This document shows, in pieces, positions 17,312 through 53,031 of a stretch of 64,000 bases of DNA. The notes beneath the pieces are model-generated. The model made no database searches. It was not told the DNA's origin and was given only the letters and a program-made list of their open reading frames with translations. The translations under genes were made by a program, and so were the position numbers. The DNA is from an uncultured Clostridium sp. (GTDB lineage: Bacteria > Bacillota > Clostridia > TANB77 > CAG-508): the NCBI GenBank assembly GCA_902492105.1, contig CABUKD010000001.1:6987-70986 (forward strand), read 5' to 3'. Every line of letters begins with the position of its first letter. Positions within the stretch are counted from its first letter, which is position 1.

Positions 17312-18122
17312 ATGAAATTTCTTATTGATTATTGTAAAGGGATTTTAATTGGTAGTGGTGCAATTTTGCCAGGTATTAGTAGTGGTGTTTTTTGTGTTAT
17401 TCTTGGTATTTATGAAAAATTAATTGATAGTGTTCTAAACTTATTTCATGACTTTAAGAAAAATGTTATTTTTCTTCTTCCTATTGGTCTTGGTGGAATT
17501 ACAGGAGTGTTATTAGTAGGTAAATTGCTTAATTTTCTCTTTAATGAATACCCTATGCCAACTAAGTTTTGCTTTATCGGTCTTATTTTAGGTAGTATTC
17601 CTGTATTATTCAAGCAAGCAAATCAGAAAAACGGTTTTCGACTTTCCCATCTCATTTTTCTAGTAATTGCTTTTTTTATTGGTTTTCTTTCTGTTAAATT
17701 AGAGACTATATTGCCAAATCTCATTAACTTAGATTTAGGAGAAAACAACTTTTTCTATTTTATACTTTCTGGATTTCTTATGGCCATTGGTATTGTAGTT
17801 CCTGGCGTAAGTAGTAGTGTTATTTTAATGTGTTTACGGTGTTTATAACCTTTATTTAGGTGCTATTGCTAGCGTAAATTTATCTATACTAATTCCTATG
17901 GCAATTGGAGTTTTACTTGGAAGTCTCTTATTTTTAAAAATAATTCAATTTTTGTTAAACCATTATTATACACAAACTTTTTATGCCATTATTGGATTTG
18001 TATTAGGCTCTGTTCTTATTTTATATCCTGGCTTTAACTTTAGTTTAGAAGGTTTTATCTCTATTGGATTATTTATTTTAGGTTTTTATATTGGTTTAAA
18101 GTTTGAAAAAGTCAGCCAGTAG
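17312..18122 (+). CDS. DUF368-family membrane protein, split by a frameshift near 17828-17848.
   Basis: Duplicated ILPGISSGV / VVPGVSSSVIL half-repeats typical of DUF368. The ORF stops at 17848 but continues in the +1 frame (GVYNLYLGAIASVNL...) into the 17898 ORF. Confidence 0.7.
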
Positions 18123-18240
18123 GGACGGTCCTTTTTGACTGAAAATCGACCAACAGGGACACTCTTTTCTCTTTTTTAAATAAGTTAAAAAAGAACTGTC
18201 CCAAGTGGCCCCATTAGGGGCTACTCGGAACCGTCCCCAA
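18119..18240. repeat. GC-rich palindromic repeat element (~120 bp) with terminal inverted repeats AGGGACGGTCC / GGAACCGTCCC and nested inner IR. Its left ~55 nt are a homologue of the element at 47019-47080.
   Basis: The termini are inverted copies of each other. The TAG stop of the DUF368 gene lies inside the CAGTAGGGACGG end. Its base composition stands out from the AT-rich background. Confidence 0.65.
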
Positions 18241-18241
18241 C

Positions 18242-19633
18242 TTACTTGCCTCTTCTCAAAATCCAACCTTTTTCTGCTTGAATTGGTAGAGGCATAAGCA
18301 CTGTTTGTCCAGCTTTTCCTGGGTTTACTGTTGATATTTCTTCTCTTGTTTCTGTGTCCCATAGTTTTTCAATTTGGAAAGGAACTGTTTCTATTTGGTT
18401 TGGTATTAATATTTCCATTTTGTCACCAACAGTTAATTTATTTCTAATTTCTACTAAACAAATTTGATTCTTATTACTAAATACTATTCCTTCTTTTACA
18501 TTGTTTTCTGTGTTTTTACTATTTTCTTTGTTTTCACTATTTTCGTTATTTTCTTCTTTTTTTTCTTGTTTTGTTATATTTTCTTGTTTTGTTATATTTT
18601 CTTTTTTTATCATGATTTCATCTTTTTTTATATTGTTTACTAATACTTTTCCCCCAAATTCATAATTTGGATTATATTGTTTTCCTTCATATTCTTGAGA
18701 GTCTTTGTTGTTTCTATCATTAAAATAAAAAGTGGTTAGCCCTCTTGTTTTTGTTTTTTCTAACTCTTTTAAATATTTTGTTGCATCATAATTTTTTGTG
18801 TCTTTCATATAATCATCAATAGCATTGCGATAAGCATTTACAACAGATGCTAAATAATATTCTGTTTTTAGTCTTCCTTCTATTTTTAAACTATCGATTC
18901 CCATTTCTATAATTTCTGGAATTTCTTTTATTAAACATAAATCTTTAGATGAAAAAATATAGGTACCTTTTTCGTCATATTCTACTGGCATTAAATTGCC
19001 TGGATTATTATGTTCTTCTACATAAACATTATATGCCCATCTACAACTTTGCGCACAATCTCCTAAGTTGGCACTTCTTCCTGCCAAAAAGTCACTTAAA
19101 AAACATCTTCCAGAATAGCCAAAACAAATGGCACCATGAACAAATATTTCTACTTCTAAGTCTTTTTCTTTGTTGTTCATAATTTCTCTTATTTGTTCCT
19201 TATTTAATTCTCTTCCTAGAATAACCCTAGATGCTCCATTTTTATGCCAAAAGTTAGCTGTATGGTAACTTACAATATTTGCTTGTGTACTAACATGAAT
19301 ACCCACATCTGGTGCATATTGTTTTAAAATTTCCATTACTCCACCATCAGAGGCAATAATGGCATCTACTTTTAAGTCATTTAACATTTTGGCTTGTTTT
19401 TTTATTTCTTCATAATAGCTATCCCAAGCATAAATATTAATAGCGGCATACACTTTTTTTCCAATGCTATGGGCATATTCAATTGTTTTTGCTAGTTCGT
19501 CATTATCTACTTCTGCTCTACTTCTTAAAGATAATGTTCCTGTTCCGCAATAAACAGCATCTGCTCCATATAGAAATGCTGTTTTTGCTTTTTCAAAGGA
19601 TCCTGCTGGTGCTAATAATTCTGGTTTTTTCAT
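18242..19633 (-). CDS. Peptidase U32 family protein (TrhP/YrrO-like) with low-complexity insertion.
   Basis: N-terminal MKKPELLAPAGS...AVYCG U32 signature and conserved cysteines. Internal ENITKQENITKQ and N/E/K-rich insert encoded by tandem DNA repeats at ~18500-18610. Confidence 0.8.
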   Translation of the reverse strand: MKKPELLAPAGSFEKAKTAFLYGADAVYCGTGTLSLRSRAEVDNDELAKTIEYAHSIGKKVYAAINIYAWDSYYEEIKKQAKMLNDLKVDAIIASDGGVMEILKQYAPDVGIHVSTQANIVSYHTANFWHKNGASRVILGRELNKEQIREIMNNKEKDLEVEIFVHGAICFGYSGRCFLSDFLAGRSANLGDCAQSCRWAYNVYVEEHNNPGNLMPVEYDEKGTYIFSSKDLCLIKEIPEIIEMGIDSLKIEGRLKTEYYLASVVNAYRNAIDDYMKDTKNYDATKYLKELEKTKTRGLTTFYFNDRNNKDSQEYEGKQYNPNYEFGGKVLVNNIKKDEIMIKKENITKQENITKQEKKEENNENSENKENSKNTENNVKEGIVFSNKNQICLVEIRNKLTVGDKMEILIPNQIETVPFQIEKLWDTETREEISTVNPGKAGQTVLMPLPIQAEKGWILRRGK

Positions 19634-20628: not shown

Positions 20629-21759
20629 TTATTCACTTCGTTCTTCTATTTCCTCTTGAAACATTTCTTCCATCTTTTTCATGCTTTTTTCTATTTTAAA
20701 GTTTTCTGCAAATTTTGCATACTCTTTTTCTTGTTTTTTCTTTTCTTCTACATTATCTAGCCAATAATCAATTTTTTGCGTTAAATCTGTGCTATTTCCT
20801 GCTTCAAAAAGACTTCTTTCATCTAAAGCAAATTGTTTAGTTGCAGATTGGTCACTTTTAGCAATAACAGGCACTAATCCAGTAGCTATAGCTTCTATAC
20901 ATGAAATTGCTTCTATTTCTGCGTCTGAAGTGTGTACATATAAGTCAGTATAGCTTAGCAATTTCTTTAGTTCTTCTTTGGTATAAAATGCCATAATAGG
21001 TTTATTTTGTAGTGTTTCGCTTAATTTAGCATAATGCTTTTTCATTGGTCCATTACCTGCAAAAACAAGTTGTATTTTATCTGCATATTTAGATTGTTTA
21101 GCAGCTTCTATTAATAAATCTTGTCTCTTTTCACCAGATAGTCTTCCTACCATAGTAATGACAATTTTATCTTTTAACTCTTCTGGTTTTTCTGATTTTT
21201 TATAAACCCAGTCTGATTCAATTCCATTAGAAATCACATGCATTTTGGCTGTGTAACCATGTTTGATTAATTCATCTGCAATTAGCTTACTAGGACAATG
21301 AATATGATGAAATCTATTAAAAAATTTATCTCTAAATAAAAAATAAATTTGATCATTAATTTTAGTTTGTTTGCCTAGACCAATAGAATAAGTAATATTT
21401 TCTGGCTGTACATGGAACGCAGTAGTTCTTGGTTTATTTAGTTCTTCACATATCTTAAGTCCTTTACTAGATAATAAAAAAGGCATATAAAAATGTACTA
21501 CTTCTGCCCATTCTATTGCTTTTCTTAACTTTTCTTCATCTGGCTTAGCAAATTCCATTCCTTGTGATTTTACAATCCTATTAGCAATAGGTGGTAATTT
21601 GAATTCTTTTACTGCATATTTATCCTTTTCTTCTTTGCCTGTACTAATAACTCTTACTTCATTTCCGTCTTTTCTTAAGTTTTCTACAAATCTTCTTGCT
21701 GAAATGGTAGTTCCATTATTTGCTCCATCATACTGGTCTATTACAACTAGTATTTTCAT
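20629..21759 (-). CDS. GT4 (GT-B) glycosyltransferase, likely a diacylglycerol or glycolipid glycosyltransferase.
   Basis: C-terminal EAIATGLVPV E-x7-E-like GT4 motif. It lies next to an acyltransferase gene. Confidence 0.7.
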   Translation of the reverse strand: MKILVVIDQYDGANNGTTISARRFVENLRKDGNEVRVISTGKEEKDKYAVKEFKLPPIANRIVKSQGMEFAKPDEEKLRKAIEWAEVVHFYMPFLLSSKGLKICEELNKPRTTAFHVQPENITYSIGLGKQTKINDQIYFLFRDKFFNRFHHIHCPSKLIADELIKHGYTAKMHVISNGIESDWVYKKSEKPEELKDKIVITMVGRLSGEKRQDLLIEAAKQSKYADKIQLVFAGNGPMKKHYAKLSETLQNKPIMAFYTKEELKKLLSYTDLYVHTSDAEIEAISCIEAIATGLVPVIAKSDQSATKQFALDERSLFEAGNSTDLTQKIDYWLDNVEEKKKQEKEYAKFAENFKIEKSMKKMEEMFQEEIEERSE

Positions 21760-21887
21760 TTTATTTTCAATTCCTTTCCATAACTATATTTCGTAAGGCT
21801 TTCACTTATGTAAAAAGTTTTGTAGTTTTGTTTTCTATAAAATTATATCATATTTTTATTATTTTGACTACTATTTTTTCAGGAGTT

Positions 21888-21989
21888 GTGTCAATGGGGA
21901 CGGAGAATTTTGACAACTTTTAAAAAAAATATTTATTTTTGTTAAATCTTAATTCAAAAGTTGTCAAAATTCTCCGTCCCCATTGACAC
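21888..21989. repeat. Perfect 34-bp inverted repeat (GTGTCAATGGGGACGGAGAATTTTGACAACTTTT ... reverse complement) with 34-nt AT-rich spacer.
   Basis: Arms at 21888-21921 and 21956-21989. It sits in the divergent intergenic region between the GT4 gene and a membrane-protein gene. It contains the same GGGACGG core as the other repeat loci, plus TTGACA boxes. Confidence 0.8.
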
Positions 21990-22085: not shown

Positions 22086-22724
22086 ATGTTAGATTCTATA
22101 GGTAATAAAAATTTAAATAGTGAAAGTTTAAAAAATGAAGAAGTATTAGATAATATGATAGTAACAGATCCAACTGAAATTTCTAAAAACAAAAAAAAGC
22201 TTAAATTAAATAGAATTCAGCTTTTTACCTTATACTTTTTCTTATTTGCCTTTATTGGTTGGCTAATGGAAACTGTATATGCTATTTTTACTTTAGGGCA
22301 TTTTGTAAAAAGAGGTTTTCTATTTGGTCCTATTTGTCCTATTTATGGCTATGGTGCTTTAATGCTTATTTATTTTTTAGGTAGATATAGAAAAAATAAT
22401 TTGAAGTTATTCTTTTATGCTGCTATTCTTTTTTCTGCTTTTGAGTATGTAACAAGTTATGTGTTAGATGCGCTTTTTGGTATGCATTGGTGGGATTATT
22501 CTAATGATTACTTTAATTTAAATGGTCGTATTACTCTTTCTTTTTCTATTGCTTGGGGCATTATTGCTATTTTATTTGTTAACCATGTATATCCGTTCTT
22601 TAAAAAGAAATTAAATATTATATTAGCCAAAATTTCTTACAAAGTAAAAACTTGCATAATTTATATACTTTCCTCTGTTTTTGTAATTGATACCATTGCT
22701 TCTTGTATTAAGTATTTATTATAG
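22086..22724 (+). CDS. Integral membrane protein, possibly of the putative ABC-transporter type IV (CmpB-like) family.
   Basis: LFGPICPIYGYGALML ... HWWDYS motifs. About 6 TM segments. Confidence 0.45.
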   Translation: MLDSIGNKNLNSESLKNEEVLDNMIVTDPTEISKNKKKLKLNRIQLFTLYFFLFAFIGWLMETVYAIFTLGHFVKRGFLFGPICPIYGYGALMLIYFLGRYRKNNLKLFFYAAILFSAFEYVTSYVLDALFGMHWWDYSNDYFNLNGRITLSFSIAWGIIAILFVNHVYPFFKKKLNIILAKISYKVKTCIIYILSSVFVIDTIASCIKYLL

Positions 22725-22857
22725 ATTTTTTCATACTTTCTATAAATATGTTTTATTGCTTTTTTCATCAATATTTTTTGCTTATTCCTTTTTGACTTTT
22801 ATGTTAACATATGCTATACTATAACTATTCTTTATTTTATTTAGGAGGATTAGAAAG

Positions 22858-23583
22858 ATGGTATCTATTCGGGGAACTCGCATCCTAAAAGATGGTGGTG
22901 TTTCTATTTCTACTTATGAACGCACTGTAGAATCTCGGTATGATGGAAAACAAATTATTACTTATTTTACAGAGCATCAGAAAACAGGCTCATACTGCTT
23001 TAACATTTTTACATTTAAACATTGCCTAATTCGTGTATTCTTATGTATTGCTTTAATAGTATTGTTAACCAATTTTACTGATTTAGAAACTACTTGGACA
23101 ACTACAACAAAGATTTATGCTTCTTTTTGTATGTATACTTTTGTAACACTTTTCCCTATTTGGTTATGTTCACAGTTCCATAATAGAAATAAATATCATG
23201 CTGCATTGCATATGGTTAAAAATGCGTATGAATCATTACAAAGAATTCCTACGGTAGAAGAATGTAAGAAGTTTTCTTTCTATGATAGAGATTGCACTTT
23301 AACAGTTTCTTTGATGCTTTTTGTTTGCTATATTTCTGGTTTTACTTTTTCTTTTATTCCTATAGATAACTCTACTCTGCTTTATCCCTTTTTATGTTTA
23401 TTGGTTATTTTGTTATTTGTAGTAGTAGTTTCAAAATGGAAATTAGATAAGTATCTATTAAGACCGTTTTTATCTAGACCAACAAATATTGAATTAACTG
23501 CTGTAATTGAGTGCCTTACTTTATTAGAAGGACCTCGTACCAAAACCATTTTTTATACGATTCCTTCTTCCTTTGATAATTAA
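22858..23583 (+). CDS. Hypothetical membrane protein.
   Basis: 241 aa with several hydrophobic segments. No motif recognised. Confidence 0.4.
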   Translation: MVSIRGTRILKDGGVSISTYERTVESRYDGKQIITYFTEHQKTGSYCFNIFTFKHCLIRVFLCIALIVLLTNFTDLETTWTTTTKIYASFCMYTFVTLFPIWLCSQFHNRNKYHAALHMVKNAYESLQRIPTVEECKKFSFYDRDCTLTVSLMLFVCYISGFTFSFIPIDNSTLLYPFLCLLVILLFVVVVSKWKLDKYLLRPFLSRPTNIELTAVIECLTLLEGPRTKTIFYTIPSSFDN

Positions 23584-23596
23584 AAAGGAGTCTAAA

Positions 23597-23643
23597 ACAG
23601 CAGTCTGAAGCAGTAATTACTACTTCAGGCTGCTGTTTTTTTA
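23597..23643. terminator. Bidirectional rho-independent terminator between convergent genes.
   Basis: 14-bp stem ACAGCAGTCTGAAG / CTTCAGGCTGCTGT followed by a T7 run. Confidence 0.7.
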
Positions 23644-23672
23644 TGTTACTTTTTATTTGTTTTCCCACTTTT

Positions 23673-24263
23673 TTATTTTATAATTTTTGAAATTGCAAGG
23701 CCATCTCCTACTTCTAATATCTGTGTTTCAAGATTTGGATTTTGTGTAATTTCTGCAATATATTCTCGTAAATTTCTTACTGCAGTACGTTGTTTATGTT
23801 TATTATAGTCACTCATTACATATCCTTTATACAAGACATTATCTGCAATAATAGTTCCACCTGTTTTTATCATTCTTAAAGCCTCTTGCAAAAAGAAAGG
23901 GTATTTTCCTTTTGCAGCATCTATAAACACCACATCATATTGTTCTTGTAAAGTAGGTAATATTTCTACTGCATCCCCTTCATAGATTTGGATTTTATCT
24001 TCCACTTCTACTTTTTTGATATTTTCTCTTGCTTCAGATGCTCTAGCAGAATCTCGTTCAATAGTATCTATTTTTCCATCATTTGCTAAATAGCTTGAAA
24101 AGCAGATGGCTGAATAGCCAACTGCCGTTCCTATTTCTAAAATTCTTTTCGGTTTTATTTTACTTAAAATATTTGCCACTACTTCTAGAGTGTCATCCAT
24201 AATAATAGGAATATGTTCTTCTAAAGCTTTTTGCTTTATTTTTTCTAGTTCTATTACATTCAT
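23673..24263 (-). CDS. Class I SAM-dependent O-methyltransferase (TrmR/YrrM-like, caffeoyl-CoA OMT family).
   Basis: EIGTAVGYSAICF SAM-binding motif. About 196 aa, typical of family 3 O-MTases. Confidence 0.75.
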   Translation of the reverse strand: MNVIELEKIKQKALEEHIPIIMDDTLEVVANILSKIKPKRILEIGTAVGYSAICFSSYLANDGKIDTIERDSARASEARENIKKVEVEDKIQIYEGDAVEILPTLQEQYDVVFIDAAKGKYPFFLQEALRMIKTGGTIIADNVLYKGYVMSDYNKHKQRTAVRNLREYIAEITQNPNLETQILEVGDGLAISKIIK

Positions 24264-46731: not shown

Positions 46732-47018
46732 GTAAAAAATTCTCCTCTTTTTATTTTTTATTTTTTGTATTTTATATGTTTTTTCATTTATTTATATATT
46801 TTTATATTTTATACTTTCATATTTTCTGCATGTTTTTTATTCTTTTGCATTATATCATTATTATATTCTATTGTCTAGATTCTTTTAGGATGAAAATAAT
46901 TGGATAGATGCATTTTTGAATAGAAAATGGTTGAAATATGTATTTCATAAAAATAACACTCCTTTGCAAATACGTTTTATAAAGAGGATGAAATCTCTTA
47001 TAAACGTTTCTGTAAAGG

Positions 47019-47080
47019 AGTGTCCCTGTTGGCTGATTTTCAACCAATAAGTACCGTCCCTATTGGCTGATTTCACGAAT
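47019..47080. repeat. Second copy of the GC-rich repeat unit, about 85 percent identical over ~55 nt to the reverse complement of 18119-18170. It overlaps the stop codon of the GT2 gene.
   Basis: Two direct half-units GTCCCTGTTGGCTGATTTTCAAC and GTCCCTATTGGCTGATTTCAC. The TAG stop is embedded in CAATAGGGACGG, as at the 18 kb locus. Confidence 0.65.
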
Positions 47081-48292
47081 AGCAATTTTTCTAACATGCT
47101 CGATTTTATCCCAACTAGTATCACGTTTAAATAAACATTTAAAGTTAATTGCAAGCCATGAGCCTAAGAATAAAGGATAACATAATAGTCCTTTTATCAT
47201 TGGTTTAATTGGTCTTTTATCTAACAACATAATTAAAACTGCTGTTCCTATTGGTAAGAGGAATGTTGGTATTACATATCTCAAAATATTTAAAGTTAAC
47301 TCTGCACTTGTCATTCCTTGTCCTGCATACATAACAAAATTTAAAAATAGTAATACTAATGTTGCCACAAACATTGGAATACTTCCAATAATGTACAAGA
47401 ATCCATCAAAATTCATCATAGTTTTGTGTTCTTTAATTGCTAAGGCTAATGGTTTTGTGTATTCTTTGATACATTGTATATGACCAACTGTCCATCTTGT
47501 TCTTTGTTTCCAACTTTGTTTAAATCCTAATGGTTGTTCATCATAAACAATCGCATCTGCTGCCCAACCTAATTTTTTTCCTTTTATAATTCTTTTTAAA
47601 GAAAATTCAATATCTTCTGTTAATGTTTTTGTATTCCAACCTTCTGGTTTAATTACATCAAATTTTACCATGAATCCAGTACCATTAATAAGTGGTGATA
47701 ATCCTACATTGTATCTAGCTAAATGGTAGAAACGGTTCATAGTCCAATAGAAAATAGTATATCCTGCTGTAATCCAGTTATCTGTTGGATTTTTGATATC
47801 TCTATATCCTTGTACTACATCTTCCCCTTGGCAAAGTTTTTTATTCATGTTTTTAATAAAATCTTCATGTACAATATTATCTGCATCAAAAATGCAAAAT
47901 GCATCATAAGGTGCATCTTCTTCAATTTTTTGTGCTAAAAACCAGTTTAAAGCATAACCTTTTGTTTTCTTTTCTGGGTCAAATCTTTCATACACAATAG
48001 CACCTGCATTTCTTGCTACTTCTGCAGTACGGTCTGTACAATTATCTGCAATAACATAAATATCTAGTAATTCCTTTGGATAGTTTTGCTTTTTTAAACT
48101 TTCTATTAATTCTGTTACAACATTTTCTTCGTTATGTGCTGGAATAATTGCCATAAAACGATGATTTTTTTCTACTAATAATGGCTTATCTTTTAGTTTT
48201 ACTAATGAACAAATACTAATTGCTAATTGGTATAACCAAAATATAGTAATAATCCACACTAAAGCTTGTTGTAGAATGTATAGATATTCCAT
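47060..48292 (-). CDS. Processive GT2 membrane glycosyltransferase (cellulose-synthase / poly-beta-hexosamine / glycolipid synthase-like).
   Basis: N-terminal TM, DxD region (FDADN), QRTRWTVG (QxxRW) motif, and C-terminal TM bundle. Confidence 0.8.
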   Translation of the reverse strand: MEYLYILQQALVWIITIFWLYQLAISICSLVKLKDKPLLVEKNHRFMAIIPAHNEENVVTELIESLKKQNYPKELLDIYVIADNCTDRTAEVARNAGAIVYERFDPEKKTKGYALNWFLAQKIEEDAPYDAFCIFDADNIVHEDFIKNMNKKLCQGEDVVQGYRDIKNPTDNWITAGYTIFYWTMNRFYHLARYNVGLSPLINGTGFMVKFDVIKPEGWNTKTLTEDIEFSLKRIIKGKKLGWAADAIVYDEQPLGFKQSWKQRTRWTVGHIQCIKEYTKPLALAIKEHKTMMNFDGFLYIIGSIPMFVATLVLLFLNFVMYAGQGMTSAELTLNILRYVIPTFLLPIGTAVLIMLLDKRPIKPMIKGLLCYPLFLGSWLAINFKCLFKRDTSWDKIEHVRKIAIREISQ

Positions 48293-52719: not shown

Positions 52720-53031
52720 GGTTTTTCCTGACTTGTTTAGTATACTAAATTTTAAAAAGATTGTCAATACATATTCTAAAAAAAATCAGATTTTTTTGTA
52801 AAATTATTACACTAAAAAAGCCTTCCTAAAATAAAACTAAATTTATTGAATAAAAAGTATTAGAATTGTCTTTTGAAATTTTTAAAGCCTTGCGTGGGCG
52901 ACCATTGTGACAGCTGTTCGAGGAATTTATTCCGAGTTACAGCTATCCAAAAGGGGAAAGGTTTTTAAAATTGAAAAAGACAATTCTAATGCTTTAGTTA
53001 TATATTATAATCTTGTAAAGACAATTGCTTC

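Follow-up and report, generated by a model that had tools for sequence, protein, structure and literature searches.

Between positions 21888 and 21989 of the 64,000-nucleotide (nt) stretch analyzed here, which comes from an uncultured Clostridium sp. and is called the window throughout, a long perfect palindrome lies between two divergently transcribed genes. These were confirmed to encode a GT4/GT1 glycosyltransferase and a CmpB-like membrane protein. Does the palindrome serve as an operator, act through the structure into which it can fold, or belong to a family of mobile repeats, as a preliminary description of the sequence had variously suggested? As set out below, it is very probably a non-autonomous, REPIN-like mobile element linked to transposases of the RAYT/TIRYT type (RAYT stands for a tyrosine transposase associated with REPs, which are repetitive extragenic palindromic sequences), and not an operator.

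A palindrome made of two short units

The perfect 34-bp inverted repeat first noted at this locus was confirmed. Its left arm (GTGTCAATGGGGACGGAGAATTTTGACAACTTTT, 21888-21921) and right arm (21956-21989), the latter an exact reverse complement of the former, are separated by 34 AT-rich nt (21922-21955), and a repeat finder, allowing one mismatch (97% complementarity), lengthened the arms to 37 nt and left a loop of 28 nt. With up to three mismatches tolerated, the 34-mer occurs at two sites only in the window (GC content 28%), and 100 shuffles produced no match, which bears out the earlier judgment that such a palindrome is improbable by chance. Folded as single-stranded DNA (ssDNA), the segment forms a single hairpin of -42.4 kcal/mol, compared with -10.0 ± 2.5 kcal/mol for shuffled sequences (z = -13.2). 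The proposed cruciform or hairpin is thus physically plausible; however, hairpin potential is shared by the whole repeat family described below and is not specific to this locus.

The inverted repeat as a whole (21888..21989, no strand) contains a head-to-head doublet. The element proper spans 100 bp (21889-21988) and is composed of two 27-nt units, with an outer G/C pair that lengthens the palindrome by one base by chance. The left unit (21889..21915, plus strand) reads TGTCAA-TGGGGACGGAGAATT-TTGACA, in which a 6-bp mini-palindrome encloses a conserved core of 15 nt, and the right unit (21962..21988, minus strand) is its exact reverse complement. The inner part (21916..21961) contributes six extra paired bases per side (ACTTTT / AAAAGT) and the 34-nt AT-rich spacer, and differs in sequence and length among family members, whose doublets range from 44 to 163 bp. 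The TTGACA boxes reported for each arm were located at plus-strand positions 21910-21915 and 21983-21988, where they are the 3' halves of each unit's internal palindrome TGTCAA/TTGACA, a half that is conserved in all copies of the family; at this locus the boxes make up no promoter that exceeds chance. Inverted units, a short spacer and a single long hairpin give the element the layout of a REPIN.

A core shared with a second site at 18225-18237 had also been proposed. The sequence CAATGGGGACGG is not present there and, with up to one mismatch, occurs in the window at 21892, 21974 and 47054 only. What the two sites do have in common is GGGACGG (18231-18237, in the context GTTGGGGACGG), a motif found at six sites in the window compared with 0.31 expected. 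The idea of a shared core holds in this looser form, at the level of a superfamily.

A dispersed family that also bounds a Y1 transposase gene

One genome per species was scanned with the 17-mer TGTCAATGGGGACGGAG, and the resulting counts are lower bounds. The 17-mer was detected in at least 115 blocks from at least 55 assemblies, at least 48 of them labeled Clostridia, Clostridium, Clostridiales, Eubacteriales or Bacillota and one more labeled Bacilli; the family-bearing Clostridia metagenome-assembled genomes (MAGs) originate from the gut of humans, rabbits, chickens and ruminants. Six non-Firmicutes matches among those listed look like chance, since the rest of the unit is absent and the GC content is 45-62%. 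Head-to-head pairs numbered at least 76 among the matches listed, approximately 60 of which were doublets of 44-163 bp with the plan of the window copy, namely a unit, a variable AT-rich spacer and a reverse-complement unit. The suggestion of a MITE-like (miniature inverted-repeat transposable element-like) member of a repeat family with a GGGACGG core therefore proved essentially correct, the family being large and dispersed.

Alignment of 229 distinct units showed that positions 1-17 are nearly invariant (consensus TGTCAATGGGGACGGAGatTTTtGACA) and that units start sharply at T1 next to flanks that show neither a consensus nor a conserved target tetranucleotide. Of 206 units, 147 preserve the 6/6 stem, and compensatory variants are present (TGCCAA/TTGGCA and TGTCAG/CTGACA). 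At positions 18-30, arm identity is 0.90 within one element versus 0.60 between elements, and both arms therefore derive from one lineage-specific variant, although this likeness is not by itself proof of selection for pairing. Intergenic members occur in tandem (23), convergent (9) and divergent (4) settings, the last, which is that of the window copy, being the rarest class; one further member lies inside an open reading frame (ORF). A genome-wide search for arm copies had been put forward as a check on regulation, with copies at random intergenic sites named as counting against it. Many such copies were found at unrelated intergenic sites, and by that measure the regulatory reading fails.

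Nine distinct head-to-head pairs among the matches listed are 846-937 bp apart and each enclose an ORF of 225-239 amino acids (aa). Using tblastn, this ORF was identified in at least 12 genome-scan loci, and a further gene-carrying copy (locus L142) was obtained from the metagenome scan. Geometry was measured in twelve loci (eleven genome-scan loci and L142): the left repeat begins 135-198 nt ahead of the ATG in all of them, and in 10 of the 12 both repeats lie near the ORF, with the right repeat ending 36-82 nt past it. The 27-nt unit forms the terminal inverted repeats of this element, and the genes outside it differ from genome to genome.

The encoded protein matches Pfam Y1_Tnp (6.6e-13) and has a C-terminal helix-turn-helix (HTH) domain that matches HTH_11, HTH_DeoR and HTH_38. 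An HxH motif (H60xH62), Y120 and N124 are invariant in a 12-sequence alignment, and proteins from different genomes are 57-66% identical to one another. When the PDB was searched with a profile of the 12 sequences, E. coli TnpA_REP (4ER8) ranked first (E = 3e-4, residues 1-143) and ISDra2 TnpA was matched at E = 0.38; a search with a single sequence gave no match, 4ER8 being reached by the 12-sequence profile only. The IS200 model scored 19-23 bits against a cut-off of 55. Overall, Pfam, NCBIfam and PDB profile scores place the gene nearer to RAYTs than to IS200 transposases. The Y1+HTH enzyme family comprises 2,193 clusters (90% identity) at E ≤ 1e-20.

Doublets and gene-carrying elements are connected by sequence as well as by their ends. 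Doublets of 95-110 bp share the subterminal sequence ACATAAAAAATGRAATRATAGATAAATTT... with gene-carrying L142, which is the relation expected of an autonomous element and its internal-deletion derivatives, and a target-site duplication flanks neither doublets nor gene-carrying elements. Among related MAGs, a single genome can hold both forms: in CANRMR01 the gene (L008) is accompanied by a doublet (L054), and CAWVJY01 combines it (L080) with at least seven further blocks. The doublet is a gene-less version of the 846-937-bp Y1-encoding element.

Terminal inverted repeats of 27-35 nt that start with TG and end with CA, a length of approximately 100 bp and the lack of coding capacity would equally fit a classical MITE derived from a DDE insertion sequence, with the Y1 gene as a mere passenger or neighbor. 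Such an origin is very unlikely, since flank matches of 2-4 nt were seen in only 3 of 48 doublets, which is the chance level for target-site duplication, and no DDE gene was found between any repeat pair. Only the Y1 gene recurs as cargo, at a fixed distance from either end, and this association holds across genomes whose Y1 proteins have diverged to 57-66% identity.

Many family members are located 0-10 nt past stop codons. This position and the very stable hairpin would suit a functional RNA or DNA structure kept by the host, such as a barrier or insulator, an mRNA-stabilizing hairpin or an RNase III site, and similar roles have been proposed for some REPs, which are mostly found downstream of genes, are in many cases probably transcribed and are hypothesized to act in transcription termination or mRNA stabilization (Di Nocera 2013, PMC3733652). 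Nevertheless, we consider this unlikely for the window copy, which lies between two gene starts and upstream of the likely GT4 promoter and is therefore probably in neither mRNA. The repeat is not followed by a T-run, terminator-like sites were absent from the region (0 found), and no Rfam family threshold was reached by the element. Below threshold, the element matched mostly eukaryotic miRNA-precursor models and a small number of sRNA models, in many cases on both strands, a result that any long hairpin would give.

Three IMG/VR contigs also contain the 20-mer of the arm, and in each of them a 95-bp version of the element is present in full at two places. These are direct copies 656 bp apart around a 120-aa ORF (L001:1399-2149, L003:6540-7365 and L161:3138-3888), and one of them begins 1 nt past a tRNA 3' end, after phage tail, tail-fiber, endolysin and MazF-like genes. 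Direct copies around a small ORF and a copy abutting a tRNA are arrangements that a site-specific recombination site (phage att, dif-like or attC-like) might produce. However, no integrase accompanied the copies examined, on inspection the unit departs from the R'/R'' consensus of attC, and the recurrent partner of the repeat is a Y1 HUH gene; no RAYT was found in the viral contigs by the scan. The tRNA-adjacent copies may lie outside the phage itself, in host sequence that borders a prophage, and we regard a recombination site as extremely improbable. Integron attC and IS21- or Tn7-like multi-site ends were likewise considered and were unsupported by the sequence or the associated gene.

Full units are often preceded by truncated ones, which measured 9-11 nt in 29 of 50 cases (TGTCAATGG(G)(T)) and 13-14, 16-18 or 22-24 nt in the others. 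After each truncated unit comes a precise TGTCAATGG start, and in many cases the arrangement is mirrored across the doublet. Examples include L085:4320-4580, L108:7250-7400, L021:2290-2403, L065:2110-2193 and L080:4230-4300, as well as the left repeat of the RAYT cluster P0158 discussed below (L164, around position 1030). This looks like either repeated insertion into the loop or center of older copies, or HUH cutting and joining at fixed positions. At two loci, inverted units surround a single ordinary gene: a Dxr-like gene (381-aa ORF, L006:3394-4677) and a RecN-like gene (540-aa ORF, L016:4706-6503), both assigned by eye from the N-terminal sequence. These units are probably neighboring intergenic insertions, although bracketing pairs could in principle mobilize host genes.

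History of the insertion and other repeats in the window

The genes flanking the palindrome encode the GT4/GT1 glycosyltransferase (20629-21759, minus strand) and the CmpB-like membrane protein (22086-22724, plus strand). A consensus scan identified a candidate GT4 promoter, TAGTCA-17-TGaTATAAT (21842..21870, minus strand), between the repeat and GT4 and thus outside the element, which ends 17 nt upstream of its -35 box. TAGTCA-17-TATAAT with its upstream TG is the best promoter-like site of the region, whose three such sites are not above the 2.8 found in shuffled sequence.

In a sister species, GT4 is 87% identical and the gene order is kept (BipA, methyltransferase, CmpB, GT4, acyltransferase, U32). 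The GT4-CmpB intergenic region measures 216 bp there versus 326 bp in the window, and no copy of the unit was found in it. A block that aligns across both species, TAG(T/C)CAAAAT..TAAAAATATGATATAATTTT, contains the candidate GT4 promoter. As the sister species lacks the repeat yet keeps both synteny and promoter, the repeat is a lineage-specific insertion.

An operator bound by a dimeric factor at the GT4 and CmpB promoters, whether original or exapted, would account for the location in the 326 bp between divergent genes, where a good -35/-10 pair begins 17 nt downstream of the repeat, and for the perfect symmetry of the arms; the TGTCAA-N15-TTGACA half-sites, 21 bp apart from center to center, might suit a dimeric HTH protein. 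This reading is nonetheless quite unlikely. The same sequence occurs in every intergenic context (tandem 23, convergent 9, divergent 4) at unrelated loci in dozens of genomes, the repeat is missing from the corresponding intergenic region of the sister species even though the promoter is conserved there, and the number of promoter-like sites (3 vs 2.8 in shuffles) does not single out the region. In addition, one arm has a G-to-T change, with no compensation in the other, in one contig of the window species.

Two further window-species contigs end inside the repeat, and no presence/absence polymorphism of the repeat or of family B (below) was found among the strains that span them. In one window-species contig (L128:1-70), the sequence turns to unrelated DNA inside the GT4-proximal unit (window ~21889-21900). 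The switch occurs after TGTCAATGGG (read ...CAGA|CCCATTGACAC), 55 nt from the end of the contig, and this stretch matches no fetched sequence; it could represent a rearrangement at the same position-10 junction or an assembly artefact. Adjoining the CmpB gene, a 948-bp segment (22731-23678) with a DUF1385 gene (22858-23583) is absent from one contig of the same species (L152), which is 99.2% identical on both sides. This gene is also absent from the sister species, and the segment represents an indel polymorphism.

Related repeats, here called family B as opposed to family A of the palindrome, occur at two other sites in the window. A composite doublet (18109..18241, no strand) has arms with a GTAGGGACGG/GTTGGGGACGG unit on the outside and a GGGACA(C) motif on the inside, and a solo arm (47014..47073, no strand) is 85% complementary to 18109-18168. 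Family B carries GTAG ahead of GGGACGG. The same two-motif layout is found in the 125-126-bp doublets L032, L041 and L068, where the outer unit is the family-A unit; the copies at 18109-18241 and 47014-47073 have the layout of the two-motif sub-type of the same repeat family. The family-B doublet is present and identical in all strains, and neither GGGACGG nor GGGACAC was found in the fetched loci of the sister species.

Both family-B copies touch coding sequence. The doublet overlaps the stop codon at the end of ORF 17898-18122 (plus strand) and lies directly against that of a U32 peptidase gene (18242, minus strand), and the solo arm supplies the last codons and TAG stop of a GT2 gene (47060-48292, minus strand). 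The stop-codon overlaps read ..AGC CAG TAG GGACGG at 18114-18128 and ..GCC AAT TAG (minus strand) at 47068-47060. The possibility that family-B copies are the ends of a larger transposon within the window was rejected, as the ORFs beside them are the GT2 gene and a VCA0040-like fragment and there is no RAYT in the window. A divergent RAYT in L099 was also dismissed as a family-B partner, its flanks being another short inverted repeat (GGGCCAGG/CCTGGCCC) with no GGGAC motif.

The VCA0040-like (undecaprenyl-phosphate translocase-like) gene is split into 17312-17848 and 17898-18122, which cover profile positions 1-166 and 188-231. The 178-aa VCA0040-like call recurs in other strains, the split appears fixed, and the gene may be a pseudogene or contain a frameshift. 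The U32 peptidase (18242-19633) is 430, 457 or 463 aa long across strains and 410 aa in the sister species, and an 18-nt tandem repeat lies inside its gene (18547-18617). The family-B element was discarded as the source of these length differences because it is identical in all strains.

A second, unrelated palindrome (52854-52995) with 38-nt arms of 87% complementarity and a 66-nt spacer is located upstream of a tRNA-Val/Asp/Phe cluster. A segment of MAG CAWVJY01 (L064:6129-6269) matches it at 89.5% identity, and this palindrome may be a conserved leader of the tRNA operon or belong to a further family of small repeats. The window ends (8-214 and 63731-63937) form a 207-nt direct repeat of 82% identity that encodes pilin-like N-termini (MVVTIVILLILSGVTINMLLGEDGIIRTAQKAKN...) and reflects paralogous genes, not a mobile element. 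These paralogous pilin-like N-termini and the small palindrome are the only stretches that the window has in common with CAWVJY01. A Fusobacterium origin of the window, to which its 28% GC and a weak plasmid-database match had pointed, was dismissed, as its conserved genes align with gut MAGs labeled Clostridia at ~74% nucleotide identity and human-gut metagenomes encode proteins identical to its own.

Candidate enzyme, mobility and comparison with known systems

The RAYT cluster P0158 (226 aa) is listed in 79 blocks of the collection and is the probable cognate enzyme of the window species. Its right repeat (TGTCAATGGGGACGGAGAATTTTGACAACTTTT) equals the window arm over 33 of 33 nt and its left repeat over 28 of 28 nt, and the presumed RAYT locus holds four units. 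Three of the nine places shown for P0158 are samples with contigs that encode the exact GT4 of the window (ERZ27242442, ERZ918203 and ERZ24773488), and in ERZ24773488 (sample BRZ_PI) contig coverages are 6.51 for P0158 and 6.32 for the window species. A control RAYT, P0166, had no sample in common with window-species contigs. Together, these data are good circumstantial evidence, though not proof, that P0158 is the enzyme in the genome of the window species. The gene is probably stable and single-copy, as the same neighbors are present in seven of the nine places and the locus is 96-97% identical to that of MAG CAWVJY01.

We propose that an enzyme encoded elsewhere in the genome would move or copy the doublet in trans. 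It would act on ssDNA in which the unit or the whole doublet is folded as a hairpin, with HTH binding to duplex DNA as an alternative or additional means of recognition, and a precise cut 5' of T1 would be followed by rejoining without target duplication. In an ancestor of the window species, a copy may have landed ~17 bp upstream of the GT4 -35 box, left the promoter intact and become fixed, its local effect probably being neutral. Recognition, cutting and movement in trans are modeled by analogy on known HUH Y1 enzymes. Studies of E. coli TnpA_REP reportedly found that the protein binds and cleaves REP DNA. IS200/IS605 elements are described as moving through ssDNA intermediates, with recognition via subterminal secondary structures (PMC6006769). 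Precise ends, the lack of target duplication, nested or truncated units and absence from the sister species are traces consistent with mobility.

Several points weigh against a mobile element driven by such an enzyme. No RAYT is present in the 64-kb window, which holds one family-A copy only, and P0158 is assigned to the genome through sample co-occurrence and one coverage match, with no shared contig. In all nine full metagenome contigs with an identical GT4, the repeat occupies the same site and no movement was seen. The intergenic region of the sister species aligns over the promoter only, which leaves the insertion point undefinable to the base. The unit itself differs from a classical REP in that it lacks a GTAG head and has a 15-nt loop on a 6-bp stem, and the Y1 protein scores 76.8-79.1 bits with NCBIfam REP_Tyr_transpos, just under the cut-off of 80. 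We know of no TIRYT for which activity has been demonstrated. Evidence for RAYT-type mobilization, in the available portions of the literature, consists of in vitro REP binding and cleavage and of population sequencing in Pseudomonas. No sign that the copy regulates GT4 or CmpB was seen, though it may have a side effect on adjacent promoters through exaptation, cruciform formation or a spurious -35 box.

In annotation, the glycosyltransferase and membrane-protein genes should not be assigned the palindrome as an operator or promoter element. The family is abundant in low-GC gut Clostridia that are known mainly from metagenomes. Many RAYT clusters are represented only by contigs of 821-1100 bp, approximately the length of the element (e.g., P0121, P0126, P0172, P0206 and P0232). 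Since many RAYT contigs have roughly the length of the element and two window-species contigs stop within the repeat, the family probably breaks metagenome assemblies of these Clostridia. The nested junctions yield testable predictions of TIRYT-type HUH cut positions. If the junctions of truncated units are cleavage and joining sites, they would form a natural record of TIRYT-type HUH repeat processing, which to our knowledge has never been shown experimentally.

Among known systems, IS200/IS605 elements resemble the family in having a Y1 HUH transposase, and lack of duplication and hairpin potential were both observed here. IS608 and ISDra2 are said to cause no target duplication and to act on ssDNA hairpins. 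Unlike the repeats described here, the ends of IS200/IS605 elements are asymmetric subterminal hairpins and not terminal inverted repeats, and the protein found here fits the IS200 model poorly (19-23 vs 55 bits; ISDra2, E = 0.38). DDE MITEs such as RUP, NEMIS/Correia and ERIC share a length of ~100 bp, non-coding sequence, terminal inverted repeats, hairpins and proximity to genes (PMC3733652) but differ in that no target duplication was found here and the partner gene encodes a tyrosine HUH enzyme.

As in REPIN-RAYT systems, units are inverted around a short spacer and form a long, non-coding, intergenic hairpin (PMC3116915, PMC3333891, PMC5581495); as in Pseudomonas and Enterobacteria (E. 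coli BIME/TnpA_REP), a RAYT-type gene is also flanked by such units and its locus seems to be stable, and the nearest solved relative is TnpA_REP 4ER8. By analogy, the doublet would functionally be a REPIN (PMC3116915, PMC3337134). Classical REPs, however, are described as having an unpaired GTAG/CGTC tag beside a 5-13-bp stem with a small loop (Di Nocera 2013, PMC3733652), whereas the family-A unit has no terminal tag, CGTC being present only in the loop on the complementary strand. REPs have a long stem and small loop, unlike the present unit with its 6-bp stem, 15-nt loop and missing GTAG head. An additional HTH domain and an NCBIfam score slightly short of the RAYT cut-off also distinguish the protein. 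Each tnpA_REP gene is reported to have its own specific REP family (Ton-Hoang 2012, PMC3333891; Quentin 2018, PMC6006769); here, at least 48 species share one and the same 17-nt core, with enzymes that are only ~60% identical.

Work on REPIN-RAYT and TIRYT systems has dealt mostly with Proteobacteria, with Clostridia mentioned in passing (PMC5581495, PMC6006769). Group 1 RAYTs have been noted in Clostridia, and large repeat populations were reported for Groups 2 and 3 only (Bertels 2017, PMC5581495). A full-text literature search for the motif returned unrelated primer-type matches only. Because of these two results, we rate the window family as an addition to the known REPIN/TIRYT kind. More tentatively, it could constitute a large REPIN-like system of uncultured gut Clostridia, absent from the papers searched and spread over at least 48 species, in which the unit has stayed near-invariant while the enzyme diverged to ~60% identity, with nested copies at fixed positions.

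The closest description of the family is the TIRtron/TIRYT class, that is, RAYT-like genes with long flanking inverted repeats, some of which share GGGG[AT][CG]A[CG] (Di Nocera 2013, PMC3733652). This class corresponds to TnpA_Y1 subclass 2.1, with C-terminal HTH domains (Quentin 2018, PMC6006769), and its repeats also form "moderately abundant" families of dimers and clusters (PMC3733652). The C-terminal domain found here is not Bac_DnaA_C, HTH_23 or HTH_28, unlike in TIRYTs, and the published examples are mostly from Proteobacteria and Acidobacteria, with no Clostridia system listed in the available portion of that survey (PMC3733652). As for the motif, the core GGGGACGG matches it at seven of eight positions, and the inner GGGACAC of family B, L032, L041 and L068 fits its last seven positions. 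As in TIRYTs, a Y1/HUH gene with a C-terminal HTH lies within long inverted repeats that are not classical REPs, and the same repeats are found elsewhere as dimers and clusters.

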